A stretch of 36,978 bases of DNA. Origin: Candidatus Omnitrophota bacterium (lineage in GTDB: Bacteria; Omnitrophota; Gorgyraeia; JAHJTE01). Position numbers and translations under genes: made by a program. Each line of letters starts with the position of its first letter. Position 1 is the first letter of the stretch. Where the stretch lies: contig JAHJTE010000003.1 in the NCBI GenBank assembly GCA_018830005.1, positions 265,674 to 302,651 of the forward strand, given 5' to 3'. Below, in pieces: positions 1-20,800 of this stretch. The notes below the pieces were generated by a model, which was given only the letters and a program-made list of their open reading frames with translations, had not been told where the DNA came from and searched no databases.

Positions 1-740
1 TCAAATACCATTTCTGGCTTCTCATCAGTGTTGTATCTTCCCAAAAAGTCATATTTTCTCGTCACGTGGCCGCTAGGCTTCAAGGAAGAGGCAAAGAAAT
101 TCAGATACGCATAAGACTTAATATCCATATCGCCCCAGGCCGCAGTCTTTTTAGCCAGAATACAGTTATGCCGTTTGTCAAACCAGACGCGATTGTATAA
201 ATTCATAATATTGCGATAGCGAAGCTCTAAATGATAATCGCCGAGCAGCCATTCGCAATAAGGAAATAGCTCTAAGCTCCTTTTTTTCTTGCTTTCGTTT
301 TTTATATTTACCAGCCAGATCTCGCAGGTGTCTTTGGTGGGCACAAAATAAGTCACCTTAGAGGAAATACCATTAAATTTAGAATAAATCTGGGTATATC
401 CTAAGCCGTGACGGCACTCGTAGTTATCAAGTTTTTGTTTTACCGGCTGATAAGTCAAGCTCCAGATTTTCGTCGTGTGTCGTGTGTCGTGTGTCGTGTG
501 TTTATTATCCTGGGATTTGACATATATATAACGGCCGGGCCTGTCAACCTGCCAGTTTTCCGGAAGCCAGCGCAATAGGCGGTCAGTACGGCAATCCTTA
601 TAAAAACTATAGCCACCACCAGTATGAGAAGAAATCGCGCAATAATCTTCATTAGTCAGATAATTAATCCAAGGCCGGGGGGTATTAGGGTTGGTAATTA
701 TGAATTCTGTTGCGTCCTTGCTGAAATGGCCATATTTCAT
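1..740 (-). CDS. GH94 glycoside phosphorylase (cellobiose/chitobiose phosphorylase-like), 5' part; runs off the window start
   Basis: Manual translation from ATG at 738-740 has no stop to position 1: MKYGHFSKDATEFIITNPNTPRPWINYLTNEDYCAISSHTGGGYSFYKDC...YECRHGLGYT...FLGRYNT. This matches the typical GH94 N-terminus. SD AGAAAGGA lies 8 nt upstream. Absent from the ORF track because the stop is outside the window. Confidence 0.88.
   Translation of the reverse strand, partial: MKYGHFSKDATEFIITNPNTPRPWINYLTNEDYCAISSHTGGGYSFYKDCRTDRLLRWLPENWQVDRPGRYIYVKSQDNKHTTHDTRHTTKIWSLTYQPVKQKLDNYECRHGLGYTQIYSKFNGISSKVTYFVPTKDTCEIWLVNIKNESKKKRSLELFPYCEWLLGDYHLELRYRNIMNLYNRVWFDKRHNCILAKKTAAWGDMDIKSYAYLNFFASSLKPSGHVTRKYDFLGRYNTDEKPEMVF
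474..501. repeat. Heptanucleotide tandem repeat (CGTGTGT)x4 inside the GH94 coding region
   Basis: Four perfect copies at 474-480, 481-487, 488-494, 495-501 plus a partial CGT at 471-473. Encodes HTTHDTRHTT in the GH94 frame. Confidence 0.95.
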
Positions 741-811
741 ATTTGATATCCTTTCTAAATTTTAGTGAGTTAAGGTAATAAGGGAAATTTCTCAAGCAAT
801 CATAAGAATTT

Positions 812-840
812 AAAATAACACAAATAGATAGGCGGGTCAA
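812..840 (-). promoter_or_regulatory. Putative sigma-70 promoter for the GH94 gene
   Basis: Minus strand TTGACC (835-840), 17 nt spacer, TATTTT (812-817) with an extended TG. The -10 is weak. Confidence 0.4.
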
Positions 841-991: not shown

Positions 992-2155
992 CTAAAGTAC
1001 CTTACCTTGCCATAATTCACTCAAAAAGTTACCCCACGGTAATATCTCTATTTTACCATGAAGCCTCTTTTCCTTCTCATTACAAATAATAATGCTTCTT
1101 TTTGGAGAATGTTCTTCCATAAAAGCTGTTAGCCCGTTTAAATCCCTTTTGTCCAGGCGACCTGACCCTTTGATCTCTATGGCAATCTTTCCCCCTCCCA
1201 GCACTAAATCTACTTCCATACCTGACTTTGTTCTCCAGAAATTTATTTCAAATTCCCGCGAACAATATGCACGGTAAGCAACTATTTCCATAAGTAAAAA
1301 ATGTTCAAGCGCTTTCCCAAATTCCACGCCTCTCTCATTCTCCAGATGCCGCTTTGTCAAACAGCCGGCAACACCTACATCAAACAGGTAATATTTCGAG
1401 GCCTTAGTAATAACCTGTCGTGATTGCCTCTTTTTGAAAGGCTCAATCCTAATAGCCAACAACGTATCAATAAGAATCTGATAGTATTCTTTTACAGTCT
1501 TTGAATCTACCCCGCAATCACGAGCGATATTGTAATAGTTTGTAAGCTCACCATGTGAATAACCAAAGGCATCAATAAATCTTGAAAATGCAGGAATGTT
1601 TCGCGTTAACCCTTCGGCAAAAATTTCCTCTCTCAAATAATCCTGTACATATGCTTTCAAAGATTTCCTGCATTCGTTATCGTCTTGTAAATAGTGCACT
1701 GGTATCATTCCGTGATTTAAGATATGTAAGAGATTTGGGGCTTTAAGTTCAGCCGTAACCAGCGGAAACATTTCAAAACGCCATGCTCTTCCCCCTAAAA
1801 GATTAACGTGTCCTCTCCTTAATTTTCTAGCACTTGATCCACAAAGAATAAAACGTAATCCTTTGTTCTCGATCAACCAATGCACTTCATCAAGAATCTG
1901 TGGAATCTTCTGCACTTCATCAAGTACTATTGGATGCTTTATGTCACTCTTATCCTTTGCAAGTAGTCTTTCTCGTAATAGTGCTGGATTCTTAGATACT
2001 TCAATAAAAAAGTCTGTCTTTAAAAAATCATATATCAGACTATTTGGAAAATGTTTTCTCAAATAGGTAGTCTTGCCTACTTTTCTAGGCCCCCATAAAA
2101 ACGCGGATTGTCGCTTAGGAAGCCTTATATTCAGGATTCTCTCTATATTTCTCAT
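992..2155 (-). CDS. AAA+ ATPase, AAA_14 + DUF4143 type
   Basis: Walker A GPRKVGKT, Walker B IVLDEVQK, GRA motif, KxYxxDxG, and a C-terminal PD-(D/E)xK-like EVDLV...IAIEIK. 387 aa. Confidence 0.88.
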   Translation of the reverse strand: MRNIERILNIRLPKRQSAFLWGPRKVGKTTYLRKHFPNSLIYDFLKTDFFIEVSKNPALLRERLLAKDKSDIKHPIVLDEVQKIPQILDEVHWLIENKGLRFILCGSSARKLRRGHVNLLGGRAWRFEMFPLVTAELKAPNLLHILNHGMIPVHYLQDDNECRKSLKAYVQDYLREEIFAEGLTRNIPAFSRFIDAFGYSHGELTNYYNIARDCGVDSKTVKEYYQILIDTLLAIRIEPFKKRQSRQVITKASKYYLFDVGVAGCLTKRHLENERGVEFGKALEHFLLMEIVAYRAYCSREFEINFWRTKSGMEVDLVLGGGKIAIEIKGSGRLDKRDLNGLTAFMEEHSPKRSIIICNEKEKRLHGKIEILPWGNFLSELWQGKVL

Positions 2156-2315: not shown

Positions 2316-2441
2316 TTATCGCCTGGCAAGCCCTTGCTCTCCGGCTCCCGCAATCCACTTTCCTTTTAGCTCATCCATCTGGGCAATCTTTGACCAGATC
2401 TCAGAAGAGATATTTTGCAGCCTTTCTCTAAATTTACTCCT
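2316..2441 (-). pseudogene. Probable remnant of the N-terminus of a Fic-family gene
   Basis: Frame reads RSKFRERLQNISSEIWSKIAQMDELKGKWIAGAGEQGLARR-stop. This resembles, from memory, the N-terminus of a Fic/DOC subfamily (IWxKIxxIDELKGxWIxGA). No start codon (AGG where ATG might have been) and an early stop. Confidence 0.45.
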
Positions 2442-2511
2442 ATTCCCAGGAAAATGGTTATCTTATATTTTAACTATATAAGATTACAATTGTATGTCGA
2501 GTATTTTCTTG

Positions 2512-2564
2512 TTGACAAACGATAGAAATATGTTACACTTGTAACAGATATGTTACATAAGGAG
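2512..2564 (+). promoter_or_regulatory. Promoter/operator and RBS of the HTH-MNT/HEPN operon
   Basis: TTGACA (2512-2517), 16 nt, extended TGn-TACACT (2531-2539). Three TGTTACA half-sites at 2531-2537, 2540-2546 (inverted) and 2551-2557. SD AAGGAG at 2559-2564. Confidence 0.75.
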
Positions 2565-2569
2565 TAGGT

Positions 2570-3169
2570 ATGAAATTCCACATCCCATTATTAGATGTGC
2601 TAAACTCAAGGACAAAAGTAAAGATTATGAAGTTCTTATTAACCCATGAGGCCTCTATGAGTGAAAGGGAAATAGCCTCGATTTTAAAAGTCTCACATAT
2701 GAGTATAAACAGGACTATGAGAGAACTTGCGGATTTTAATTTCGTAAACTTTATCAACGTTGGAAAAGCACATCTATGGAAGATAAATCGTAAAAGTTAT
2801 GCTTTTAAAATCCTATCGGAATTAATTCAGGGGGTTTCAATTATCAAAGAACCTTTAGGACAACTAAAAATCACTCTCTTGCGAAATTTACCTAAAACCC
2901 TAGTTAAAAAAGTTGTTCTTTTTGGTTCGGTGGCAAAGGGATTAGAAAAACCAAATAGTGACATAGATCTATTTATTTTGGTTAAAGATAAACAAACTAA
3001 GATAAAACTTGAACCTGCAATTGAAAAGCTATCAAATTTATGTTTCGAAATATTCGGAAATAGATTATTCCCTTACATCCTTACAGACCAAGAACTAAAA
3101 CAGAAGGAAAAATTAAAACTTATCTCTGAAATTGAAAAGGGTATTCAATTATTCCCGAAAAGGAAATAA
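2570..3169 (+). CDS. Winged-HTH fused to minimal nucleotidyltransferase (MNT), putative antitoxin
   Basis: N-terminal HTH (MSEREIASILKVSHMSINRTMREL). C-terminal polB-type NTase motif VVLFGSVAKG...SDIDLFILV. Confidence 0.85.
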   Translation: MKFHIPLLDVLNSRTKVKIMKFLLTHEASMSEREIASILKVSHMSINRTMRELADFNFVNFINVGKAHLWKINRKSYAFKILSELIQGVSIIKEPLGQLKITLLRNLPKTLVKKVVLFGSVAKGLEKPNSDIDLFILVKDKQTKIKLEPAIEKLSNLCFEIFGNRLFPYILTDQELKQKEKLKLISEIEKGIQLFPKRK

Positions 3170-3175
3170 TAAATA

Positions 3176-3583
3176 ATGGTCTCTAAAGTAAAAACTAAAG
3201 ACGTTTCAAAATCGCTATATGTTAATTTTCTTAAACGTGCCGAAGAATGTTTTCATGCAGCACAAAGTTCTTCCTCTGTCCAAGAGTGGAATGCTGCAAC
3301 AATTAATGCTATTCACTGTTGCATTGCGGCTTGCGATGCTATGTGTGTATATTATTTAGGCAAGCGCTTTACCGGTGAAAAGCATCAGAATGCAGTTGAT
3401 CTTTTTAAGGTAGTCAAAAGTGGCGATGAAAACTTAAACACAAATGCAAATAGAATCCTAAGAATTCTTCGCATTAAAAATATGGCAGAATATGAAGAAA
3501 GGCTGGTTTATAGATCTGAAGCAGAGAAAGTGTTAAAAGACTCTCAAAGGTTGCTTGAATATGTTAAAAAAGAACTACCATAA
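3176..3583 (+). CDS. HEPN-domain protein, partner of the MNT gene
   Basis: 135 aa, all-helical. FLKRAEEC..A, WNAATINAIHCCI.ACDA and RIKNMAEY motifs. Starts 6 nt after the MNT stop. Confidence 0.8.
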   Translation: MVSKVKTKDVSKSLYVNFLKRAEECFHAAQSSSSVQEWNAATINAIHCCIAACDAMCVYYLGKRFTGEKHQNAVDLFKVVKSGDENLNTNANRILRILRIKNMAEYEERLVYRSEAEKVLKDSQRLLEYVKKELP

Positions 3584-3675
3584 GTTGTATTTTTAACTCT
3601 CCTTCTTTAAATCTTCTAGACGCTTAAAAACATTATCTATGTTGTATCCCCTTCGACTTTCCTATGCACCATTTT

Positions 3676-4005
3676 TTAGCGATTAAGCATATCCTGCAAT
3701 ACTGAAAATGCTACTAAATTCACAGACTGTTCTCTTAAGGCAATGCCAGCGCGCCAGCCCTCAGGAAAATACTCCCTTGACCAGATAACGTTCCCGGCAA
3801 GAGTGAGAAAATCTCCTTTCTTTGGAACCTTAACCTTTAAGTCAACATCGCCTTCTAATGGCAGTCTATCCTTGCTGAATATACCCAATCCCTTTGCGCC
3901 CAAATCTCTTACCTCTGCCTCTAGCTCTGTATTAACCTTTTTTGAGCTAAGAAACAAAGGGAGTTTCAGCCCAGTCCTGTCAAAGTAACGACGTTCTTCC
4001 TGCAT
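3676..4005 (-). CDS. PilZ-domain protein (c-di-GMP receptor)
   Basis: RxxxR (RRYFDR) and DxGxxG (DLGAKG) motifs. Start moved to ATG 4003-4005 because AGGAGG lies upstream and the 4080 start overlaps the next gene. Confidence 0.82.
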   Translation of the reverse strand: MQEERRYFDRTGLKLPLFLSSKKVNTELEAEVRDLGAKGLGIFSKDRLPLEGDVDLKVKVPKKGDFLTLAGNVIWSREYFPEGWRAGIALREQSVNLVAFSVLQDMLNR

Positions 4006-4058
4006 GTTCCCTACACCTCCTTTTATATACAGACGATCTCGAAATGCTAAGTTGTGAC

Positions 4059-4439
4059 TTAATTCAAACCTTCCCACCACTTCTTCGTAAGTTCATGCTT
4101 ACAAAAATTATATGAATAGTTGAAAATTCTCTCTTTATCAATATCCCTTAAGCTATCAAACCTTACGCCTGTCTTAACATATAACTCTCTGGCCTCTGAA
4201 AATATATCTTTCTGCCAGAGAATCTTAGCTTTCGCACATATGTAGCGGTCTTCATCAGAGACATCAATAACTAATTCCAATTCTGCGTCTGGTGGATGTC
4301 TCTTCTCAGAAAGAAAACTCAAGCCACCAATGCTGATGTCACTTGCCTTGGCCTGATTTTCAGCTTCTTCTATTCCGGCCTGCTTAACACCTACACCTGT
4401 CTCTAGATTCCAGCGAGCATTCTGCCTTCTTTCCTGCAT
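4059..4439 (-). CDS. PilZ-domain protein (c-di-GMP receptor)
   Basis: MQERRQNAR (RxxxR) and DISIGG (DxSxxG), ending in GVRF. Start region resembles that of the neighbouring PilZ gene (GGTGTAG...ATGCAGGAA). Confidence 0.87.
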   Translation of the reverse strand: MQERRQNARWNLETGVGVKQAGIEEAENQAKASDISIGGLSFLSEKRHPPDAELELVIDVSDEDRYICAKAKILWQKDIFSEARELYVKTGVRFDSLRDIDKERIFNYSYNFCKHELTKKWWEGLN

Positions 4440-4497
4440 AGTCTACACCCCCTCAGCTATATTTTACACCCAAATAATGTTTTTTTGGGAATTTTTA

Positions 4498-5814
4498 TCA
4501 ACAAATTCCCACGAATACCTCCTTCATAACCACACTTATTGCACCAAGTGCAACTGCTTTTTTCTCGTCAATATCGCTAATTAACACCTTGATTGTCTCT
4601 GTCTCTTTAATATCAGCCAGCTTCAGTTTCTCTTGAAGCATATGTTTTAATTGCGGTAGTTCTTTCTGGACTCTTTTTGCGATATAGATAACATCCGGAC
4701 CTAACAGCTCTATCAATGCCAAGGCCCTATCTTGTAACTCTAATGTAACTAATTCTACCTTGCCTTCAATTTCCTTCTCAGGCTTATAGATATCCCCTGC
4801 TAATATCAGACTTAACAGATGCCTTGAGTGTATATAGAGAATATTCTTATTAGACAATTCGCGCAGCATCCACATCTGGGCATAAGACTCTAAATGGAAA
4901 TTCTCTTCAATAACTACCGGTAAGCTAAATTCTCGAAAGATGTAATCTTCAAAACCTGTATGTTGCTGCATATCAGCTAAGCCAATGCCAATACCTAAAA
5001 CCTGGCTTGCCTTTGAGCCTAACTTACCTATAATACTGCTGATAAGGCTCCTAAGCTCTGTCTCTATATCGTTTTTATCTCTAATCGGCTTTTTATCTTC
5101 TAAAATTATATCAAATGCCATATTTGCTACTAATGCCAGCATGTATCCAGCCTCAGCATTTACTTCTATACCCAAAATCAAACCAAAGTCCTTATTAAGC
5201 TCTAATAACTGGGCACGTCTGCCGCCGCTGGATAAATCCAGGCCACAATCAAAAACCAAACCTGCTCTCAAAAAGTCTTCAATAAACTTACCCACGCTTA
5301 CGACGTTCAGGTCTACTTGTTTAGATATATCTGCCTTGGTTACCGGGCCAAATCTTCTGATATAATCAAGTATCGCAAAACTCCTGCGTTCTTTATCCGC
5401 TAACTCAACAAGAGGCTGCTTTAGGAATTTTATCTTGCGAGTCTCTTTCTTCTCTGGAGTTACCTTTTGATAGATATATGTCAGATAAGTTTGTTTCTGT
5501 TTTTCATCAATCTGTATTATCTCCAAACCCACACCGCTTATTGAGTCCTGCTTTCTCTTAACCCAGGCAACCTGACAGATAAGGCGCATAGGCTTGCCTT
5601 CTCTATGAAGCTGTAAATCAAGATGCACTATATTGCCGATTGACTCTAAAGAAAGATTGTGGGAAACAAACAGACCGCCCTCAGAGATATTTAAGCTCTT
5701 AGCCTCGCTCCAGGCAGACTCGGTCCTATCCGAGAACCTGAATCTTACTGGCAGGGTCTCAGGCAAGCGCTGGAATCTTCTCTTTTCGTTGTGGGCTAAC
5801 GTATTATTAAACAT
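4498..5814 (-). CDS. PilZ-winged HTH-ROK (NagC/XylR-like) fusion regulator
   Basis: N-terminal PilZ (KRRFQR, NISEGG). wHTH GPVTKADISKQVDLNVVSVGKFIEDFLRAGLV followed by SSGGRR. ROK-like ILGIEV, GIGIG and LPVVIEEN, with a shortened C-terminus. Confidence 0.8.
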   Translation of the reverse strand: MFNNTLAHNEKRRFQRLPETLPVRFRFSDRTESAWSEAKSLNISEGGLFVSHNLSLESIGNIVHLDLQLHREGKPMRLICQVAWVKRKQDSISGVGLEIIQIDEKQKQTYLTYIYQKVTPEKKETRKIKFLKQPLVELADKERRSFAILDYIRRFGPVTKADISKQVDLNVVSVGKFIEDFLRAGLVFDCGLDLSSGGRRAQLLELNKDFGLILGIEVNAEAGYMLALVANMAFDIILEDKKPIRDKNDIETELRSLISSIIGKLGSKASQVLGIGIGLADMQQHTGFEDYIFREFSLPVVIEENFHLESYAQMWMLRELSNKNILYIHSRHLLSLILAGDIYKPEKEIEGKVELVTLELQDRALALIELLGPDVIYIAKRVQKELPQLKHMLQEKLKLADIKETETIKVLISDIDEKKAVALGAISVVMKEVFVGIC

Positions 5815-5826
5815 CTCTATTCATTA

Positions 5827-8800
5827 TTAGAGCAATCGTCCTAGGTAAAAATCTTCGATTATCGCAACAGCCTCCTGGTATGTGTCAACTATTCTATAAC
5901 GATTTAAATCCTCCTCAACTATAACTCCGGCAGGCAAAAGAGTCTTTTTAAACCAAGTATGCCAGGGCTGCCAGAAATCTCTTCCAAGTAAAACTACGGG
6001 AACCTGTTCTATCTTTTCCAGTTGCATCAAACATAATACTTCAAATAAAATATCCAATGTGCCTGTTCCACCCTGCAAGAAAACAAAACCCAAGCTACTA
6101 TGTCTGATAAGGGCCATCTTCTGTTCAAACGTATAGCTAAAGCCCAAGTTCATGCTCGCATGATTAGAATGATCTCTATTGCCTTTAAGCAATAAAGATA
6201 TGCATTGTGAATTAGTCCCTTTTACATCCTTATAACCCTGAGCGGCTGCAGCAGAAATACCCCTATGGCCTTTATAGATTACAGATATGTCACTATTGGC
6301 TAAACCTTTAGTTACCTGCCTTGCCTGTTCATACTCCGGACTAGTCTCGGAAACAAGTTCTGAACCTACAATACCAAAGGCAGGAACAACCTTCTCAATT
6401 CTCTTCAAAGTCCGATATAGATCTCTAATTACCTGCTCAATGTCAACATTATTATTAGCATTTAACTTCTCTAAACAAGCCTCATCTTCTAAATATCTAA
6501 GTATTCTCTGACTAGAATCTAAAACAACGAATAAATCTTTCGGCCTCTTTCTCAATAAACCCCGTTCAGACAAATCTCTCATTCGCTCTTCTAATCCTTG
6601 ATAGAATTTTCTACTAACATTATCAAACAAGACCAAGGGAAAATCATTGATATGGCCTTGATCCTTTAAGCTAGCTATTTCAAAAAATTCATCTAAGGTT
6701 CCAAAACCACCCGGCATACATAACGCGCCAACGCTTAAATCAATGAACGCTCTTTTGCGGGCGAATAAATACTTAAACATTAAACCTATATCAACAAATT
6801 CATTGCCTTCCTCCTTCGGGCATTGTATTTGCAAACCAACAGATGGCCGAGAAGTCGCAACACTGTTAGCCGCCCGCATCACTCCCGGGCCTCCGCCAGT
6901 AACTATAGAGTAGCCATTACCATCTAACTTCCTTACTAAATCTTGAGTATCATTATAAATCGAATCAGCCTCACCAACACTAGCTGAACCAAAAATAGAT
7001 AATGCTGGATGTATTCTTCTAATTTGATTTTCATACTGCCTTAATTCTCTAACAATATCCTGGATAAGTCTTGAAAGTTTAGCATCATTTAACTGCCCTA
7101 AAAACTGAACTAAACTTCCAGGCATATCTACACTTGGCCTGATAAATATCCACAATGTATCATATTTATCTTTGACAGTGAGTCTTATAACTCTCCAGCC
7201 GCGCTGGGCCATAAGTTTATATACCCGGCTAATCTCCTCATATCTTTTATCATCCAGAACCGCAGGAAAGAGATGAAAATGTACATCAATGCCGGGATAA
7301 CTATCAAAAACTTCAGCCAGTAACTCTGCGCGCTGCCTCTCTGACTCTGAATTTCCTAACTTAAAGCCCATATCCTCAGGATAAAGGTATCTAATAGCTG
7401 CATCCGAGACTATGATTGTTGGAGATTTGCTGCCTTCAATAACTTTATGCATAAAATCGATATCATAAATATCACCAGGTCCATCAGGTGGGAAATAATT
7501 AAAACCCTCATCAGAATAATCAGCGATGTTCCCCGCTAAATCTATTGCTATATATTCTCCAGCATAATCCTCTTTTCTTAGCGCCTCATATAACCTAAAT
7601 CTAGTTTCCGGACCGAGTTCAATTATAGTAGCTGCGTAAGCCATAGCCTTAATTAAATCTTTAGACAAAATCTCCCAAGTCAACGGGTCTGCCACATCAG
7701 TTATGCTGTTAAGTGTATATGTCTCAATATCAGCGGGTTTTTCTGATACCCCGCCGTTGCGGGGGTCGGAAGGCTGAAATACCCTAATTATTCTGCGGAT
7801 CTCTTCAGGTGTAATAAGTCTGTCTCTTCCTTTTCTTAATTTTTCTGACATCTCTGAAACTACAGGATCGAGCTCCTCGCTTGGACCCGCAATTTCCTGG
7901 CCGTATTGCCTTAACAACTCTAAGACAAAAATGCTGAATCTCATCCAAGGCCCCTTTTTAACAATCATTAGTGCCAATCGAAAAAGCCTAGTGTAGTCAA
8001 CCGACTCTAATTGCTCTATAATCCACTGTAATTGAGTTCGTGCGCAATAGTGGTGCTCTCTTGTGCGTAAAACTAGAGCAAAATCCTTTTTGAAACGACC
8101 ATATTCTAGTATGACTTGAGACTCTTCGATATCTTCGCTCCAACCTATTTGTTCAAGAATAGAAAAGCCTCCCAAATCGCTTATAATTTCACTAATGAAG
8201 CAGTCACCAGAAAAAATATTATGGTCAAGTTCATGGGCGCATGTACTTACAAAATAACTAGTAGCAAAACTTGTACCCTTAATATAGGGAATGCCAAATA
8301 TAAAATAAGAAGACGCGTTATCATACTTCTCACTAAAACAAGCTTGAATTAGAATTTTATATACTAAAAGCCTATATTCTTCTTTACTAATTAAAGAGAT
8401 TAGAAGGTTCTGACGAAATAGTAATATTGATAGCAGAACTTTCGTAAGTATCTTATCTCTGTCTTTACTAGCTAAAATAGCATCCATCTTGCCTAAGCCT
8501 ACTAATGTTTGTCTTGCTCTTTCTAAGTATCCATCTATATTAGTTCCTTCCATATTGATAAGATAAGAGCATTCTTCCTCTAAATCCTTAAGCCAAACTA
8601 AATCTCTTTCATTAGCTATCAAGATATTTAAAGAATTAATGAACCATTCTTCATTATTTTCAAAACCTTTCCCTACTATCTCTAGGTCAATATGCCTGGC
8701 TAATCTTTCAAATTCATCTATGCCGAACTTATAAATACGCACTAAATTATGAGAAAAAGCGGCATTATTTCTACTAAATGCGTAACGCATCCTATCTCTT

Positions 8801-11800
8801 CCAAAAAAGTTAATCAATCTAGCACATGTCTCTTTAAACTCTTCTTCAGTCATCTCTGAATAAACCCATCTGAATGTATAAGCACTCATAAAGTAATCCA
8901 AAGAGCCTTGCTGTGGTAAATATATTTCTGTATCATTCCCACTCCTATACAACCCCAACCCTGCATCATGCAGCATCATCCTTATTCTCTTACCCACCGG
9001 TGACTCTCCCACCGGCTCTTGGTAGTAGAATACGTGGCCGTCGGTGGAGCCGGGAATATCGCCGTCACGAGAATCAAGAAGTGAGTCTTCATAAGTCTTA
9101 ATTATCTCTAACTGTCGCGAGAGGAGCCAATGCTCGCAGATATCGTATTTATCAGTATCCATTAGCCTTAGATCTCTGATTTCTGTCTCAATCCTTGCCT
9201 TTAGCTGACTTAAGGCATTTGGCGTCTTTCGTCTTCTTCCTCTTGGGGTGAAAACTTCCTTTTCAAGCAACTCTCCTACAATCTTGCGTTCATCGCTATT
9301 AAGTTTCCTGCACGCTAATGCTCTATGATTAAGCTTCCTGCGAGAAATTTTACCATCGCTATTTGTTAAAAATAAAAAACCGGTTACATTATTGTCTCCT
9401 TGAGTATACACTCCCAATAAACCCCAATTCAATCCAGCAGCCCTTGCTTGAATCTTTATCATTTGACCGTCAAGTTTATATGATATAGACAAATAGGACG
9501 TTATTGTAGATTTGCTGAATAATCTTACAAGGCAAGCCCCAATTCTTTGGTGGGAAGTAGCCTTTCTTTCGATATAACCTTCGGGAAGCTTACTTGTAAA
9601 TCTGGAATTAAACCAATCATTCAATTGTTCCTCGGTACTTAATCGCTTCTTCAGCTCAAGTATTGTCTCACCAGGTTGCATTTTCTCTATACTTTTAACT
9701 TTTCCATTTTCTAATTCCACAAATTCTCTTCCTATTGGTACTTCACTTTCGTTAAAAACAACAATAACGCAATAATTATCTCCTCTCTCATCAATCCCAG
9801 TGTAGCCTTTTCTATTAGCATATTTTTTGTAACCACTTAGAGCGTTCATCGTTGGAATAATATAGATAGCTCCATTCTTATCAATCCAGATAGGCAGCCA
9901 TTGCGGAACCCTGCCTTTGACATTTGAAGCAACAAAAGCCTGCCAGTCTTTTCTTGCCTTTTTAACATTCTTATTATCTTCTTTTTCTATTTCAAGAATT
10001 TTCTTTGCTTCTCCTACGTCGAATTCTCTCTTCAGTAAATACTCTCTTGCCTTCTTAATCCAATTTCCGATAGTTAGATCTGAGTATTTTTCTCCATCCT
10101 GATTTCTTATACCCATATCATAAAGTATGTATGTGATCTCCTCTTTTGTGTGAGGATTTCCATCTTCTAAACCACAAAAGAAACTAAAGGCCAAAGCCTT
10201 ATTCGGCTCTATAAGAGCATAATCACCTAAATATTCTATTAATCTAGCTCCTCTTTCAGTCACATCCTGATCCCCATCTTCCTTAGCTTCCTTTAATTTA
10301 TATGCCTCTAGAGAAATTTCGCTTAAGAACATCTCTCCAGCTAGTAGCTCTCCTCCCTCAACTCGTCTCTCATCATCAAGACTTACTTTATCCCGCTCTA
10401 TACTCTTACCAATAAACGCAGTATATATGCCGTCTTTAATCATAGGGGCTAGAAATGTGCTTAATTTTGTATCCTGGGTGAAGTCATACCTTTTCTTGCC
10501 CTTTAAAATTTCTGTCAGGCAACAAATTCCTGCAACAAGTAATTCCTCTTCATCATAGAGGCCTAAAAGAAACCCAATTCTGGGGGTTGAATGAATTATA
10601 TTCTGAATAAGCCCTTTATTTTCCTCCACAAATTGCACTAAAGCCTCCTGGTTGCCGATTTCGATTTCTCTATACAAACGTCTCCTTCTCTGTTCTCCTG
10701 GCTCTATATATCTCAGAAGTAGCTCTCCTGCATCTCTGACTCTTAAAGGAGATTGGTTAAGTAACCAAACAAAAGCATTCTCTGCTTTCTCTACTTTATA
10801 CTTGCCTGCCAACTCTCTAAAAACATCTTTCAGCGTGCTTACATAATGGCGTCTCTTCTTGCTAGGCAACTTGCTTTGCCTGATAATCTTCTCTAAAGTC
10901 CTAAATAGATAAGAGTATTTTGCTCCTCGGCTCATCTCTGGAGTTTGATCCTGCTCTCCTTCAACATCAATCTCATAGTTCAAAACCCAGTCAATATATC
11001 TATCTATAGCTCTTACCAGCGCCTCCAGATCGCCCCTTCTAAGCCACTCTTGCAGCATCCCTCCTGATACCCCGCCGTTTTTGGAGGCAATCGCTGCCTT
11101 TCCTTCTTTCATATTTTTCCTATACTCTTCAATAATCTCCTCCTGTGAATCAGGAATACCTAAATCGCTCAAGAAACTTTCGTCTAATTCCTCAGATCTT
11201 TTTTCGTAATACAACTGAATAAATCTCTCAGTCAAATATAGTCTGCGCGCTGGACTCTTTAATATTTCATACATAATGTCATCAGGATGAGGGCATTGTT
11301 TGGCGATAGCAATAAAATCTGGCTCTATCTCTAATGTTAGCTGATAGAGTAAATAAGGCTCGAATGCCAGAAAATAAATCAAAGGATCATTTTTTGAAAT
11401 ATCAATGATAGTGGTAATATCTTCATCGTAAACATTTCCAAAACAAGGAATTGCCGTGCAGTAATAATATACATTTCCGTCACAATTTACAGTCACTGTC
11501 TGTGGTAAATAACAATAATCTACGTCTTGTCCATAATAATCTGTTCTTTTTCCATTAATAAAATTTTCTGTTGTGCCATAATCCCCGAGATAACATTCCT
11601 CATTTAAAAGTTCAGCGAATCCTAACCTGCTAACAAAATCTACACCTACAATAAATCTATACTCTCTACGATTTTTAATTAGGGTCCAGTAGATAGTTCT
11701 AACTACTTTCTGTTTTTTTCCATTTCGGCCTCTTATAGATATCTTCTCTTCTACTTTAGTTTTAACAGCAAAACCTCTCCTTTTTAATTCAGACTTCAAA

Positions 11801-14800
11801 ACACCTAGGCGTTTATGAACATCAGGTTCATGAAGAGAACGTATTACTAAAGAAATTTCTGGAAAATCTTCTGCAATTACTTGAACTAAATTGGCAATAT
11901 TAGAAATAGGTATTGTTCTCTGATGAAAGCTATCTAAGGAGGTATTTAAAATAAAGTAATAATCTGAAGTGGCATCTGTTTTAGCTTTTATAATTTTATA
12001 TACTTCGGATAAACTATCCCTTGCAGACCCTGGTGTACTCGCAAACTTAGCATTTGTTTGTAAGATATTGGGTTTTCTGCTATTTTCTAACAAAAATAAA
12101 ACATCCTCTTTAGCGAATGATAAAGGCTCTCCACCGCCAATACATATCTCTTTGAACCTGGGATCATTTTCTGCAAATTCCAATAAGTCTCTATACATCT
12201 TCTCTTTTTGCTTCCAATTTAATTTTCTCTGTGGTTTGCAATAAACAAACAGGCAATGAGGACACCAGGTATTACATTCTCTAGTAACCTGAAATGTAAA
12301 CATGTGCTTTAGAAATGCCAAAGGGCCTACTAAATCAACTTTGGCGGAAAACCTTTTTACAACTTCTCTTCTTTCTAAATCTACGCCTTTGCCAGTGAGG
12401 CAGTAAAAATACTTTTCTCTCCTCATTAATGCCTTTAATCTTCTTGGGTAATCATTACTACCATCCTCAGTATTCTCATTATCTGCACTATACCCCGGCC
12501 AGTGCGCCTTACGAATTGGACCAAAGAAGATATCGGTTGTAGTGGGTGTTTCTTGAGAGTGGTGATGTCTTTTATTTTGTGGGTCTTCTGCATCTTCTTC
12601 GTCATTATCTTTTTCGGAATAAACTAATTTCGCATCTGTAGCCATTAAGATATGTCCATTAAATATATTGCAATCGTAATGGCCTTTTTCATCAAAGATA
12701 TATTTAATACTTTCGGGAATTTCAATTGACTTCTCAAACGTCCTGGTACTGATGAAGGTACCATTAACATAAACAAAGCTATCATCTTCTGCAAAAACAA
12801 CACACATAAGCTCTCTGTCCTCCATATTTCTTTCATTCATGTAATAAAGAAGTGTCCAGAGAAGCAGTGCCTTATCTCTGTGACTTCCAGTTACAAAGGC
12901 CAAGACCTCATCCGGCAACATAATCCTATCAAGGCTGCCAAATACAGACTTAAATCCTTGGATATTTCTGACAAATCTTATCGCATCATCTAAGCTGTAC
13001 ATAAATCTCGCATTATCTTTTGTGTGTGTTTCTTCTAAGGCCTTGGCTGCGTAAACTTCAGGGTATTTAACCTTAAGGCTTCTAAATGCATACAATGCAG
13101 CTTCATACTCAAAATATTCTTCGGCAAGATTAAATGCGTATTTTTGCAAAGTTTCTGCTGAATCAAAATCTTGAATATTGATTGGTGCGCCTCTTCTATC
13201 AATAAATCTTATCCCAGACAAATCTGGTATATTAAATTCTGCTCCAAAGAATTCGCTTAATCTTTTATAAAACTTAACTACTGTATCTTTGGACATAGTT
13301 GAAATGCCTAATACAGAATTAAAAATGCCGCTAAAGGAAACGAAACTGTCAGTACATGGAGCTGCAAATTCTCTATACCAATCTATATTCTCGCTTAATT
13401 CTTTAAACTTCTTCTTAGAATACCAATATAAATTAGAAAATACGTATCCTTCATCTATATCTATGAAGACCGCAAAATGTATTTGTGTGCCAAATATAAA
13501 TATTTTTTCAAATGGAACCTGAGTAAATATCGATATTAATGATAAAAATGCTGCATCTAATGTGGCAAATGATGCACATTTACCTTCTGCCTTATTATCA
13601 TGCCGTATCCTTCTATAAGCATGCATTAATTCAATAATTTCATTCTTCATGCGTGCCCTATAGCCCTGCCTATAGGCTGTTGTTGTACTGAATCCTCCGT
13701 AGCCTCCTTCATCAACAGAGAAAAACTGGTCTAATCTATCTATGATTTGCCCCACTACTTCATCACCTAAAGCGGCCTTTTTAAAATCAATAGTAGTCCA
13801 ACCCCACCTACATCCTTCAGGCCGGTCAGATGTTGAGAAAGTATTTACATAATAATGTTTTAAATGTCCTTCTAGACTTCTTAATGATTGCGCTGTACTC
13901 CTGCCTTTAGTCTTTCTTTTTATTATCTTCCAGGCCAGAGGCGACATCATATTAGCTAGCCAAGCTGAAAGCAATAGCTCAGGATGTGCAGCAATCTCAA
14001 AATAATCCCATGTAACTGCCCAAGATAATCTTTGCTTATAGATATCTGACATTAATACTTCTCCTAAACGCAGAATCTCATGTGATTCATATTCAAAAAA
14101 CAACTCAAATATCAAATGTCTATCCTGAACATTGTAATCCTCCAAAAGAATCTCAAAGGCCTTTTTTAGTATAGGCAATAATACTGGTTTGCTATCAATT
14201 ATTGATACTAAACTTGAAACTAAACATGGAAAATCCAACTCAATGATTCCAAACTTGCATTCCCTAATCTGCTGTAAATGGTATTCAAGATACGCCTTCA
14301 TAATCCTTGCCAACTCATTAGCATTTCCCTGCTTCGCCAACCTGTATAGCATCCCTCCTGACACCCCACCGTTTTGAGGAGAATTACCGCAGACTTGCTC
14401 AGAAAGTAATCTTTTCTTCAATTCTAAAGCTAGTTTATCTTTAATAGCTCCTCTAGTGGCATTCTCTTTTTTTATTTTCTTAATTGCTAACTGCAGCTCT
14501 TTTCTAAAAATAGCGACTTTTTTATTGTCTCCTCTAATCTTATCCGCTAGGGCACCTAAAGTATTTCCTTCTTTAAGAATATTAAACAATTCCTCATTTG
14601 AAAGAGTTAACCCTTTTTCTAAAATTATATCTTCTTCCCAAGACCACTGACCTCTCTTTTTAATCTCTCGTATCAAGATTTCATCTACTTCTAAAATAAT
14701 TATCCACTTTAAAAGAGTATCATAGTAAGGATGTAATTCTGAATCTCTCTTTCTTATCATCCCCTTGTTTACCTTTGTAATCTCAGAATCCTCAAGGTCT

Positions 14801-17800
14801 TTGCTAGATAGCTTGCCTTTATAAACATGCCCGGTATTCCCATCTAGAATTAACCAACTTCCTATCTTTACCTCTGCATTTGTTCTAGAAAATTTAACTG
14901 TGTTACTATGTATTTGTAAATTGATCCGTGTAAGATGAGGAATAATTTTTTGTGCACCACGCATTCGCACAACAATGTAGTCTGCAAATCCGCCTCCATA
15001 TGAAATTGCTCCTGAGATACGTCTTTCTATTGCCTCAGGAGTAATAGTTTGTAATCTCTCAAATTCCATAACATTAAATATTACAGCTATGCCTTTACGG
15101 CCTTTTGGATTAGTACAATCAGTAATAATCGGTCCGCTAACAATACCAGGCAAGACTATAATTCCGCTGGCTATTGGTTTTCTTTCAAGGTCTTTTCGCA
15201 GAACAGGAGATTCTAGATATGTTTTTGTCCACCATAGGTGTTCAAGACGCACTGAGGAGGGTACATCAAAATTAGAACAATCTTCATACTCTTCCTCTCT
15301 AAACCTACCTAAAGCATCCTCTTCGGATATAAGGCCTTCTTTCACAAAGTCCAATAAAATCCTTACCCTTGCAAGCGGGGTAGAAAATTTCTCGTTTCCT
15401 CTTGTTTGCAATATAAACAGTTTTCCATTTTGAATAGTAAATTCTATATCCTGAATCTCATAAAAATGCTTTTCAAGCAACAAGGCAAATTCCTCTAATT
15501 CAAGATATTGTTGAGGTAAATACTTTTGCAAAGCATCAAGTCCCTCTGGTCTATCCCATTTACATAATATGTTATCTACTATTTTTAACCTGCCTACGAC
15601 CTCTGAACCTTCTGCATTAAACTTAAAACTTCCGTAAATTCCTTTTTCTCCGTTTAGAGGATTCCTTGTAAAAATTACCCCACTGCCCGACTTTTCATCT
15701 CCTATATTACCAAAAACATAGGCCTGGATATTACATGCAGCGCCACAAACAAAATAAGAGGATTGTATAACCGACTTTACCGCTAGCATAAGCTGTCTTT
15801 TGGGGGTAGGGAATTTCTTACCTGTCTTTTGCTCAAAAAGTCTCTCTGCTTTTAAAACCATCTCTTTAAGCTTATCTAGAGAAATAAGTTTGGGTAGTAT
15901 GTCATACCTATCCATATAATAATTTTCCCGTAGCGAAGGTATCTCATCCACAATCTTATTTACCCCCTCATCAAACCCAGCATCATCTTGGCTGACACAT
16001 TCTGCAATATAAGACATAAAATATAACAAAAAGTCTAAATACGCCCTATGCATATCACCTATTTCTCTTCCGTAAGCATCCAATGTTATTCTGTGTAACC
16101 CTATCTTTGTATACGTTTTATATCTACCTGGCTCGCTTTCTTCGGCACCACTTCTAACAGAAAGGAAAAGCGGATTCTTCAAATCCCCAAATTTCTTTAC
16201 ATGCCCAAAAACCTTTTTCGTTCGCCTTTCTATTTCTGAAACACCTTGAAATATCAATTCACTCACTCCTTTTGGTAAGCTATTTCTATTTTCATCGTAT
16301 CTTCTGACAATCTTATTTGGTATGGTAAATCCCGGTGGCACTGGCAAATCTAATCTTGCCATTTCTGCCAAGTTTGCACCCTTTCCTCCCAAGGCTGATC
16401 TCATGCTTGCCCTACCACATGCTTTACCCCCGCCAAAATAATATAGGGCTCCTGAAGTCTTTTTTCTACTGGATTCTCGCCGCAAATGCGCCACACGGAC
16501 TGGACCAAAGAACATATCAGCTGCAGTAGGTGCTTCTGGGAAGTGATGATGTCTTTTAATTTGAGGACTTTCTACATCTTCATGTGTTGATCTAGCAAGA
16601 TGGGAGTTATTGGAAATAAGTCCAAGCTTACGTGTAATACTCTTATAATTACGGCTAATATTACTAGGAGAACAGTTAAACTGCCTGGCTATCTCTTCTT
16701 GATTCATATTGATTATCCCTGACCTGTGTAAGGCAGCTAGGATAAACATCTGTTTATTCCTTTCAGAGGCATTTATAGGCTTTAATAGTTCTTTTAGCCT
16801 TGTTTCTGCTTCTTGTTGGGTTAATTCAGGTAGTTGTTCTTCTGGGATTAGTTTATCTAATAAAGTCTGTGGCCTTCTTCCACGTTCATCTTTCTCGTTT
16901 AGGGATCTATCTAAAGAACTAGTATTTTCTCGCTTTTCCCTCCTTAGCTCAGATCTTGCCTTATCATCTATAGAGCCCATGAATCTTTTATAGGCATAGG
17001 CACCAATTGTCTTATCCCATTTCTCTGGATCAAAGCGTGCCACAATACCCGGGATAGCCTTAAGGCAGGCAGAGAGACGCTGATCAGAATCTAGGTTGAA
17101 GTATTTTAATCTATACTCTTTGGATATTTTCTTTGCAAGCCATTCCAGAGAATACATAAGTGCCTGGTAAGCTGCTAGGTTTCCTTTCTGAACCTCTTTG
17201 GCTAATTTAACCTGTTGTTCTAGACTCATATCTTCGCTTTTTACCTTTGTCTTTCCATTTAAAATATCCTTGACTACCTTAGGATTATCATAATGCTGTG
17301 TGAATTTCTGATATACACAGCTTTCACAACACGGCTTCATGCCTTGGCTCTTAACGAAATCAAGCCAGCTGCCGTAGATTCTACGGACTGCCTCTACCAT
17401 GCCGCCATAACCAGCCTCTTGCCATTGACTGCTGCTTCTTACGTCTTTGATCTCTGTAGGGGGATTCCTAAAGGCCTCAGAGAGGGTTTGTTCGGTCCAT
17501 TTGGGAATACGGCCTTTTTTCTCAATCGGCTGTATGTCTTGGCTCTTAACGAAATCAAGCCAGCTGCCGTAGATTCTAAAGGTCACCTTTACCATGCCCC
17601 TATAACCAGCCTCTTGCCATTGACTGCTGCTTCTTACGTCTTTGATCTCTGTAGGGGGATTCCTAAAGGCCTCAGAGAGGGTTTGTTCGGTCCATTCCTT
17701 TCGCTCAATTGGCTTTATACCTTGACTTTCAAGGAACTTATGCCAGCTGCCGTAGATTCTAATAGCTACCTTTATTATGCCCCTATAACCAGCATCTTCC

Positions 17801-20800
17801 CATTGACTGCTGCTTCTTACGTCTTTGATCTCTGTAGGGGGATTCCTAAAGGCTTCAGAGAGGATTTGTCTGGTCCATTTGACAGGAGGGCCTTTTCTTT
17901 TATTTTCTGAAGATCTTTCTTCTTTCCGATAATGCGCCTTACGAATTGAACCAAAGAACATATCAGCTGTACTAGGATCTTCTGGAAAGTACTGGCGACT
18001 ATTTCCTTTTACTTTGCCGGATGTTTTCTTCGGGCCGACTGATAAAGAATTATTATTTTTAGAATTCTGTATAAAGTAATTTAATAAGGCACGCCACCGC
18101 TCTATATCTAATCTACCTACCAAAGATCTAGGTAATGGTTTTTTCGCGTAATGACTGATCACGCACTTGCTAACTTGGGAATATTGAATACAAACTGAGG
18201 ACTTCTCTAGGTTAAAATGTACACCGATTTCCCTGTAGCTCACTTCTTTTCCACAGAGTCGTCCCATAATACGAATTTTGAAGATTAATCTGTCTCTACC
18301 AGGATTCCCGCCACGTATTTTTACGGGTCTTAATAATTCATCTAAAATATATTCAAGTTCTTCCTCACACATAGCAAGAGAAGGTTGTTCTAGGCTTTCG
18401 TCTAAAGGACTCTCTCTTCTTCTGGAAGCCTTCCTCCATAAATCAATTCTTATCTGTCCAAATTTTTTATAAGCAAGGCTCTTAAGATTTGAGCCGTTAG
18501 GTCTATCAGGATTGTAATTCGTAATTATTTTTGGAATTGCTTTATCAAAAGCTCCAAGAATATCCTTACAGCTAAATGTCCATTGCCACTTATATGCTAA
18601 TGTTTCTGCGTAGAAGTAAAGCAATTGCCTTAAGGCATCTTGCGCTTGTCCATCGCCCTCATGAGCTGCTCTAGCCAGGGCATTCTGCTCTTCTAGTTTT
18701 AATTTATGAATCGTTATCTTACTGCCTGGTTTAAGGATAGCCTCTGCCAGACGGGCTGCTTGTTTTCTAGAACGTCTTCTTTCCCTTTCCTCTTCTTTCC
18801 AAACTGACAAGACTTGTTCTGCCAGCCTTTCTGACCGATGCTTATTTTCTTTCTTGCCTTTTAAGTTATCTAATTCATGCTTTAGTATTTCCTTTAAAAG
18901 CCCTACTCTCTTAAATTTAACAAGAAGCAATATCAAGGTAAGGGGTATATAAATACCACTTTTGACCTTGCCCTTTGACTTTTTAATTGTTACTGCTGCT
19001 AAAAATATCTTTAATGACTTATACCATACAGATGGCATCTCTCTAGGGTCTTTTTTAGGATCAGGGAGCACGATAAATACTCCTCTTTTCTCCAACGCCT
19101 TTAGAATCTCTTGATAAGGCTCTATTTGAACGAAAAAGTTGCTGTAGAGATTGCGCACGCCAACTACACGCCCATCATCCCAGGCTGTTTCTAGCTCCTC
19201 ATAAGTCCTGTCTTCATACTCCTTATACATCTGGCCGTCTGCTTTAAGCACACCCATGCCGCAGGGTCGGGGGACTGAATGGCCATTGGAAGCTTTATAA
19301 ATTTTGATTATTTCTAATTGTCTCAATAAGAGCCAATGTTGGCAGATATCATATCCATTGCCTATGCTTTGTCTTAAATCGCCAACTTCCCCTTCAATCG
19401 TTGATTGCAATTTTTCTAAGGCCTTTATACCTTTGCTTCTCCTTCCCCTTACAGCTAAAACTTCATCCTCAAATAAAGCAAGTATATTATTCCGTTCTTC
19501 CTTATTAAGCCTACTAAGAATTAACAAGTTATTATTAAGTTTATTATGAATAAGTCCTCCTTTATTATTGTCTTTCCGGATTATGCCCCCCACGACTACC
19601 ACATCTCTTAGAGTAGCCACTCTCCATAAGTGCCAATTAAAACCACTTCCCTTTACCTCTACCTTGAGTTCTTGGCCTATTAATTCAGGGGGTAGCGAAA
19701 TATGTACCGAACTATTATTTGGAACTGGCACTGCTATGCCGGCACCTCTTCGGCGGCCACCACTATAAACAATCCTTACCAGTGCCTCTTCCGGAGGTTT
19801 CCTTTCAAAAGGCAATTGCATCCAATTAGCCCACTTATCCCTCACTCTCAACCTTTCTTTAAAATCAGCTATTCTCTGGCTGATTTGCATATCTAAACAT
19901 TTAATAACCTTACCTTTTTTGACTTCAACATAATGCCTACCTATGGACGTGCCTCTACCATTAAAAACATTAACAGCACAACATCCTTCGCTAATATCAT
20001 TTTTATCAATATCCACAAACACCTCTGCACCAGCATGTTCTTTATAATCAGTTATTTGCAGGTTTTTAGATATCCAAATGTATCCTGCTACGCCAACTAA
20101 GATATATAGCCCCAACGGCGGATCTCCCTTCATGTTAGACTTAAAATAGCTATCCCATTCCCGCGCTATTTCTTTCTTGTTATCTCGCCGCTTTTTATCT
20201 TTTTCGATAGTCTTCTTTGCTTGTGCATTGCCGCATAATTTGATAAGCAGCTTTTCTTTCACAAAGTTAAACCACAACCTGATAGTCTCTCCTGTAAATT
20301 GATCTCCATTTTCTCCTTTTACGCCTAATCCAAAAAGGTAAGCAGCGATTTCCCCGTATGAATAAACTACATCGTCTTCTAAGCCAAGTTTCATGTTAAA
20401 GGCCATAACACGATAAGGAAATTCAATAGATAAATCTGCTAAACATTCTCTTGCCTTGGCTACAATTGAATCATTTCCTCTATCTAGCATACTTTCTAAT
20501 TGGTTATGTCGGGCTAGCGAAGCTCTTTCTACTTCAAACTTAGACAACGAACAAAAAGCTCTTGATTGCCACCGGTCTGTTTTCTTAAAGCTCGCCTCAG
20601 CATTAAAGTCTAGAGAATATTGCTCCTTTAATCCGTTCAAAATCAAACCTCGTAAAGCTGGAACAGCATATGAGCTAAAATTAAAACCGGCATCAAAAGC
20701 ATATCTTTCATCTGTTATTATGTATTGCAAAAAATATCTCCCCATCTGAAGTATATCTTCCATAGTAGTAAACTTTAGAAACGCTTTAATGGCAGGAGAC

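Follow-up and report, generated by a model that had tools for sequence, protein, structure and literature searches.

A candidate c-di-GMP receptor cassette between a giant gene and a glycan-uptake locus in Omnitrophota

The giant genes of the Omnitrophota are among the longest known, and the pilZ genes downstream of them are the only obvious regulatory handle. Does such a giant gene head an operon with these pilZ genes, and does this link the giant protein to signalling by cyclic di-GMP (c-di-GMP)? Both were proposed in a preliminary description of a stretch of DNA of 36,978 nucleotides (nt) from a Candidatus Omnitrophota bacterium (assembly GCA_018830005.1, contig JAHJTE010000003.1, positions 265,674 to 302,651). 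We refer to this whole stretch as the window. It contains a giant open reading frame (ORF) followed by three genes with PilZ domains, which we call PilZ-ROK, PilZ2, and PilZ3. The positions of these genes and the gaps between them were confirmed (lengths of proteins are in amino acids, aa):

5827..36978, minus strand: 3' part of the giant ORF, more than 10,383 codons (from the ORF listing and Pfam)
5815..5826, minus strand: 12-nt spacer from the TAA of the giant ORF to the ATG of PilZ-ROK, TAATGAATAGAG (from the sequence)
5814 to 4498, minus strand: PilZ-ROK, 438 aa, with its ATG at 5814; a PilZ domain, a winged helix-turn-helix (wHTH), and a ROK-like part
4440..4497, minus strand: 58-nt spacer from PilZ-ROK to PilZ2 (from the sequence and folding)
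4439..4059, minus strand: PilZ2, 126 aa, a single-domain PilZ protein of "type A" (from Pfam and alignment)
4005 to 3676, minus strand: PilZ3, 109 aa, with its ATG at 4005; a single-domain PilZ protein of "type B" (FPxGWRAG; from Pfam and alignment)

We propose that the trio is a c-di-GMP receptor cassette at the seam between the giant gene and a glycan locus, and we give this reading, including the mechanism described below, a probability of roughly 55%. The cassette would comprise a PilZ-wHTH-ROK-like regulator and a pair of adaptors with a single PilZ domain each, placed between the giant gene and a locus for the import and phosphorolysis of glycans. An operon headed by the giant gene is unproven.

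Are these genuine PilZ proteins? All three match the PilZ family of Pfam (PF07238) above the curated cut-off of 22.5 bits, with scores of 52.6 bits for PilZ-ROK, 39.1 bits for PilZ2, and 30.6 bits for PilZ3. As the preliminary description had it, all three keep the RxxxR and (D/N)x(S/G)xxG motifs: the translations read RRFQR and NISEGG in PilZ-ROK, RQNAR and DISIGG in PilZ2, and RYFDR and DLGAKG in PilZ3. (A listed GTG start for PilZ3, at 4080, was rejected: it would overlap PilZ2, and the orthologues begin at the ATG.) We aligned 19 PilZ sequences that are associated with giant genes. Both arginines of RxxxR (R12 and R16) and G47 are invariant, and the sequences include two orthologue types: type A, represented by PilZ2, and type B, represented by PilZ3. 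The conserved C-terminal KKWWxG tail of type A is shared with giant-associated PilZ proteins of other families. Within the window's family, type B has alanine or glycine instead of the motif's serine. Known single-domain PilZ adaptors include MapZ, the PilZ-FimX-PilB system of Xanthomonas, and DgrA. PilZ2 and PilZ3 are like these in having one PilZ barrel, a length of ~110–125 aa, and the c-di-GMP motifs, and differ from them by the tail of PilZ2, which is lineage-specific, and by the substitution in type B.

The genome that the window comes from is 1.65 Mb in four contigs, and it encodes 14 PilZ domains at about 10 loci, as well as 7 GGDEF domains, so it is equipped to make c-di-GMP. This density of PilZ and GGDEF domains is high for so small a genome. 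Two more tandem pairs of PilZ domains are at C2:49795-50941 and C1:425172-425845 (C1 to C4 being contigs of this genome).

The first protein of the trio, PilZ-ROK, has its PilZ domain at aa 10-116, a winged helix at about aa 140-185, and a ROK/ASKHA-like body at about aa 200-438. At the sequence level, this ROK assignment is weak. We found no match to the ROK family of Pfam (PF00480), even at E = 0.1 on aa 129-438; the matches to NagC/Mlc reach just 1e-6; and the phmmer match to the ROK repressor Lmo0178 from Listeria (E = 2.3e-13) covers the winged helix and the first lobe only. The predicted fold confirms the assignment. In an AlphaFold2 model that was built on 16 homologues, the wHTH and ASKHA parts are confident (pLDDT of 80-95 over aa 130-438). 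A Foldseek search places the model closest to ROK repressors and ROK kinases, with the complex of Lmo0178 and its operator first (E = 1.4e-17), followed by MecR2 and Mlc (to 1e-14).

When aligned with intact ROK proteins from Omnitrophota, PilZ-ROK is missing about 80 residues, including the GxxGxAGE segment. PilZ-ROK also contains neither a Cys/His zinc cluster nor ExGH, and its only cysteines are at positions 80, 190, and 438. Because the GxxGxAGE segment is deleted and there is no Cys/His cluster, sugar sensing by PilZ-ROK is unlikely. PilZ-ROK is therefore a PilZ-wHTH-ROK-like protein that has lost its sugar/zinc site. All 12 of its aligned homologues keep the PilZ motifs.

PilZ-ROK resembles the ROK repressors Lmo0178 (PDB 5f7p/5f7q), Mlc (1z6r), and NagC, as well as the anti-repressor MecR2 (4ija), in having a winged helix and a two-lobed ASKHA body. 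Unlike these proteins, it has an additional PilZ domain at its N terminus, and it lacks the Pfam ROK match, the ~80 residues, and the zinc cluster. MrkH of Klebsiella is also a PilZ-domain transcription factor, without a wHTH-ROK body. PilZ-ROK would be similar to MrkH in coupling a PilZ domain to (putative) DNA binding, and so c-di-GMP to a transcriptional output, by way of an unrelated architecture. A full-text search of the literature for PilZ together with "ROK family" yielded nothing relevant. The fusion is the one fresh element of the locus, and it is modestly novel.

Full-length homologues of PilZ-ROK, at ~30% identity, are found in other families, where they lie at the far end of a sugar locus of this kind. 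Some distant fusions do match Pfam's ROK family, for instance with 43.3 bits in genome G246. There, the sugar locus begins after large ORFs and two small PilZ genes; in genome G145, its start directly follows a giant that has at least 17,254 codons. Since the fusion lies elsewhere at the far end of this super-locus, PilZ-ROK is a component of the super-locus as such, and its placement beside the giant is a peculiarity of the window's family.

How widely is the gene order conserved? The taxonomic order of the window's bacterium is represented by just three species genomes: the window genome, G001, and G002. The orthologues of PilZ-ROK in the other two species (65% and 62% identity) follow ORFs that exceed 10,298 and 18,318 codons. 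Downstream of them are two PilZ genes, a GH94 phosphorylase, a solute-binding protein (SBP), two permeases, a transporter of the major facilitator superfamily (MFS), a GH2-like protein, and an intact wHTH-ROK regulator. A metagenome contig from JGI (57% identity) has a giant of at least 9,215 aa, then PilZ-ROK, PilZ, PilZ, PDDEXK, GH94, and SBP. Altogether, the trio is intact in 6/6 family-level loci. Insertions are found on either side of the trio and never within it, so the trio behaves as a unit of its own.

To look at giants of other families, we mapped the PilZ domains in 20 genomes whose giants carry a tandem LOG/SLOG module (see below) and fetched the candidate loci. (A word-based search for homologues of PilZ2 was of no use for sampling contexts: it returned PilZ2 itself and one relative only.) PilZ genes are at or near the stop codon of 6/20 sampled giants, which represent four families (f13, f21, f14, and f19); downstream of these PilZ genes come GH94 or genes for the ABC import of sugars. 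The genomes divide as follows:

G199 (f13): PilZ is the first gene downstream of the giant, whose frame has 57,099 codons; three PilZ domains precede an SBP and permeases
G125, G225, and G151 (f21): PilZ is first downstream; two PilZ, then GH94 (G125 and G225) or an unscanned gene of 811 aa (G151)
G376 (f14): PilZ follows after one intervening gene, an alpha/beta-hydrolase
G093 (f19): PilZ follows after two intervening genes, which are subtilase-like (~1,350 aa)
G301: PilZ is on the contig and is unconnected to the giant
8 genomes (f27, f32, f30, and f12): no PilZ at a compatible place
5 genomes: uninformative because of contig ends

We do not consider G093 to be a direct case, as its PilZ pair is immediately preceded by the two subtilase-like genes and not by the giant. 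By chance, a PilZ locus would be found after a given gene about 0.7% of the time, given the ~10 loci and our estimate of ~1,500 genes. Thus, the association of giants with PilZ genes is far above chance, yet it is not universal. The preliminary description had suggested a comparison with relatives, and this turned out in its favour: giants with PilZ genes behind them occur in other genera and families too.

This layout has been reported before. According to the part of a preprint that describes it (West-Roberts et al. 2023, bioRxiv 10.1101/2023.11.21.568195), most giant genes of Omnitrophota immediately precede small pilZ homologs, which are followed by carbohydrate-import genes; SBPs, transporters, and glycosyl hydrolases lie further downstream. 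The same part of the preprint proposes that the PilZ proteins interact with GGDEF domains inside the giants, and it reports a locus upstream of the giants that resembles a type II secretion system or type IV pilus (T2SS/T4P). The order of giant, pilZ, and sugar-uptake genes is therefore already published, and the locus in the window joins a known arrangement. As in the loci described there, the giants of the window genome and its relatives are followed by pilZ, an SBP, permeases, and glycoside hydrolases. In contrast to those loci, the first gene here is not a small pilZ but encodes 438 aa with a PilZ domain and a wHTH-ROK-like body; the window's giant has no GGDEF domain to pair with the PilZ proteins; and a nucleotidyltransferase/HEPN (MNT/HEPN) pair and an ATPase separate the trio from the sugar genes. 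The preprint's section on this layout does not mention a PilZ-ROK fusion.

Is the trio transcribed together with the giant gene? The traits of an operon are present: the giant gene and the trio are on the same strand, with gaps of 12, 58, and 53 nt. We scanned the minus strand from 2400 to 7000 and found no terminator-like site, in agreement with the preliminary description. Within the 12-nt spacer, there is no well-placed Shine-Dalgarno sequence before the ATG of PilZ-ROK. The ATG of PilZ2 is preceded by GAGGGGG, and in the 53-nt gap, AGGAGG lies 8 nt before the ATG of PilZ3. The lack of a well-placed Shine-Dalgarno sequence for PilZ-ROK alone, with PilZ2 and PilZ3 having theirs, fits re-initiation after the giant's stop codon. 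When the spacers were folded, the sole notable hairpin was one of 8 bp, GGGAAUUU...AAAUUCCC, which lies over the stop codon of PilZ-ROK (~4487-4510, minus strand; z = -2.8 relative to shuffled sequences). It is followed by A7 rather than by a run of U, so it is not a canonical terminator; it could be an element for RNA processing or stability.

Only one metatranscriptome contains the locus. Its contigs are 100% identical to the genome, isolated, and 156-281 nt long, and they map to PilZ3 and to some ten sites in the giant; they could reflect carry-over of DNA.

In the relatives, the trio likely has its own promoter, because it is preceded there by spacers of 64-108 nt with conserved boxes or by inserted genes, one of them antisense. 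The proposal that the giant heads an operon thus holds up in part. The co-directional genes, the tight gaps, and the absence of a terminator stand, and in the relatives, the trio is set apart from the giant.

The box in the relatives' spacers is the 15-nt sequence ATCTGYGWTYATCTG; in four relatives, two copies with 10 nt between them directly precede PilZ-ROK. It also occurs at further intergenic sites of the G002 locus. The sites, by locus, are L011 17189-17228; L016 14965-15004, 16358-16372, and 17328-17342; L017 7956-8066; L096 1424-1467; and L090 ~9932-9985. The box is absent from the window. We considered whether it might be an operator for the fusion protein and rejected this, given that it is absent from the window and is scattered across unrelated intergenic sites of the genome (for example, C1:290030-290059 and C1:782429-782467). 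A GC-rich perfect palindrome, CCTGCCTGCCGGCAGGCAGG, or a near copy of it, recurs in AT-rich spacers from two relatives (L011 ~14750-14775; L090 ~9945-9965 and ~13760-13785), and it splits the pair of boxes in L090. This palindrome may be a small mobile palindromic element. We also asked if the last 60 nt of the window's giant gene might be a decayed spacer. MAFFT aligns them to the relatives' spacers, yet the homology to LOG proteins reaches within 1-3 residues of the stop codon, so we disregarded this idea.

What is known of the giant itself? It ends with a TAA at 5829-5827 (minus strand) and is still open at 36978, which is the end of both the window and contig C3. The sequence upstream of the giant is off this contig, and we found no other contig whose end overlaps with it. 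Contig C4 was considered as the source of the missing 5' part, and its orientation is compatible. We rejected it because it has no sequence overlap and because its ORF resembles an Rhs/YD-repeat protein. (This ORF, at C4:1-5450 on the minus strand, is cut by the start of the contig; the encoded protein exceeds 1,815 aa and has a signal peptide.) The Pfam domains of the giant are PHP, PPDK_N, a piece like sigma-70 region 4, radical SAM, and, at the C terminus, tandem LOG/SLOG.

The tandem LOG/SLOG module (5830-7060 in the window) is widespread in the giant frames of Omnitrophota, in at least 12 families, and it is usually internal. The frames that carry it range from 12,696 to 82,151 codons and belong to many families. 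The last 1,200 residues of the window's giant have no counterpart in the giant from the same family in G002, which ends in LysM plus YkuD. In the JGI contig, the terminal module is instead an alginate-export-like barrel. Thus, the terminal modules of the family's giants differ, while the PilZ trio is constant. We considered a functional pairing of LOG and PilZ and rejected it, as the adjacency is not conserved: in other giants, the tandem LOG is internal, 7-38 kb from the stop codon.

On the other side of the trio are the first gene of the sugar locus and an insertion:

3..740, minus strand: 5' part of the gene for the GH94 phosphorylase (818 aa when followed into the genome), with which the sugar locus begins (from Pfam)
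811..840, minus strand: promoter-like sequence before GH94 (TTGACC-N17-TAAAnT), conserved across three genera
992..2155, minus strand: AAA_14/DUF4143 ATPase, part of the insertion between PilZ3 and GH94
2570..3583, plus strand: MNT/HEPN pair, part of the same insertion (relative to G001 and G002)

The promoter-like site has an upstream TG and lies 70-100 nt before GH94; it is also found at L011 ~14800-14860 and L016 ~17230-17290. Including the part beyond the start of the window, the sugar locus of the window genome encodes GH94, an SBP, two BPD_transp_1 permeases, an MFS transporter, a GH2-like protein, a wHTH-ROK regulator, and a LacI regulator. The wHTH-ROK regulator (C3:252616-253857) is intact, with 133.9 bits for Pfam's ROK family, and is at the far end of the locus, 11.8 kb beyond the window's start. 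It is a paralogue of the degenerate PilZ-ROK and a possible partner for it in hetero-oligomers. In relatives, too, small cassettes flank the trio: PDDEXK_3 in L090 and an NTP_transf_2 gene in L097. The super-locus seems to have hot spots for insertion at its seams.

Several observations count against a receptor cassette that is tied to the giant. The match of PilZ3 to PF07238 is partial (profile positions 1-75 only), PilZ3 has D/NxSxxG only in a relaxed form, with glycine instead of serine in DLGAKG, and the PilZ barrel of PilZ-ROK was modelled with low confidence. Pfam identified no GGDEF domain in the giant's >10,383 codons. The suggested link of the giant to c-di-GMP signalling therefore stands as far as the PilZ genes, which are genuine, and the genome's 7 GGDEF domains are concerned, and does not extend to a GGDEF domain in the giant itself. 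None of the metatranscriptome's contigs, at 156-281 nt, spans a junction between the genes, and a promoter for the trio could still be hidden within the giant's last codons in the window genome. Turning to the relatives, PilZ-ROK is preceded by a 64-108-nt spacer with two conserved boxes in G001, G002, L090, and L096. In L096, a gene of 219 aa separates the large ORF from the trio; in L097, three small genes do so, one of them antisense. Furthermore, the trio is tied to the downstream GH94/ABC (ATP-binding cassette) sugar locus as strongly as it is to the giant; GH94 has a conserved promoter-like site of its own; and 8 of the 20 sampled genomes have no PilZ gene at a compatible place.

Some of these points would be explained if the trio were an autonomous unit of the downstream glycan locus, which it would place under c-di-GMP control via a ROK-type regulator. 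The giant would be a mere neighbour and the 12-nt gap an accident. This is possible, and we find it the less convincing account. ROK regulators such as NagC and Mlc classically control sugar loci, and PilZ-ROK has weak matches to NagC/Mlc. The boxed spacers and inserted genes between giant and trio in the relatives also argue for this alternative, as do the PilZ-ROK homologues that end sugar loci elsewhere, 14 kb from a giant's stop codon, and the position of GH94 directly after the trio in G001, G002, and L097. In the window, however, the trio adjoins the giant only: it is cut off from GH94 by a 2.9-kb insert that includes two genes on the opposite strand. Also, a promoter-like site precedes GH94 itself, an intact ROK regulator and a LacI regulator are already present in the sugar locus, and small PilZ pairs are found behind giants even when no PilZ-ROK is nearby. 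In another account, the small PilZ proteins would work specifically with the giant or with the machinery that exports it, gating its secretion or deployment by c-di-GMP, in analogy to the control of type IV pilus ATPases by PilZ-FimX-PilB. PilZ proteins of type A (with the WWxG tail) and type B do recur directly after giants with differing modules, and the T2SS/T4P-like upstream locus and the PilZ-GGDEF link, as described in the preprint's account of the layout (bioRxiv 10.1101/2023.11.21.568195), point the same way. We nevertheless consider a role as partners quite unlikely, since the window's giant has no GGDEF domain, its upstream side lies beyond the contig end, and many giants have no adjacent PilZ genes. 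Could the adjacency simply be due to chance, given 14 PilZ domains in 1.65 Mb and two other tandem pairs? This is effectively refuted by conservation: giants and PilZ genes are neighbours in three genera of the family, among metagenome relatives, and in four other families. The adjacency was also reported independently in the preprint's section on these loci (bioRxiv 10.1101/2023.11.21.568195).

We therefore favour a c-di-GMP receptor cassette at the seam between the giant gene and the glycan locus. Under this proposal, c-di-GMP made by the genome's GGDEF cyclases would bind to the PilZ domains. In PilZ-ROK, c-di-GMP would take the place of sugar in switching the winged-helix/ROK scaffold, and the scaffold would then act on local promoters (that of its own cassette or that of the GH94 locus) or on the locus's canonical ROK repressor. 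PilZ2 and PilZ3 would act on protein partners. In the window genome, the cassette is probably expressed at least in part by read-through and re-initiation from the giant's mRNA, because the giant's stop codon is only 12 nt away, there is no terminator, and PilZ-ROK has no usable Shine-Dalgarno sequence. In the relatives, the cassette keeps a spacer of its own and could be expressed independently. More speculatively, PilZ-ROK might be a new type of c-di-GMP-gated regulator, in which a PilZ domain stands in for the sugar/zinc sensor that a ROK repressor has lost, and which binds local operators or acts as a MecR2-like anti-repressor on the intact ROK protein; we think that this is rather unlikely to be correct as stated.

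The locus offers a concrete candidate route from c-di-GMP to transcription, by way of a PilZ domain on a ROK scaffold that has no sugar site. It also adds two recognizable orthologue types of small giant-associated PilZ proteins, and evidence that the PilZ cassette is separable, staying intact while the terminal modules of the giants and the flanking insertions change. If the more speculative reading of PilZ-ROK is true, then the uptake genes for prey glycans would be expressed according to the c-di-GMP state in which the cell produces the giant "attack" protein. In the window genome, this tie would be literal, as the regulator would be translated off the end of the giant's mRNA.

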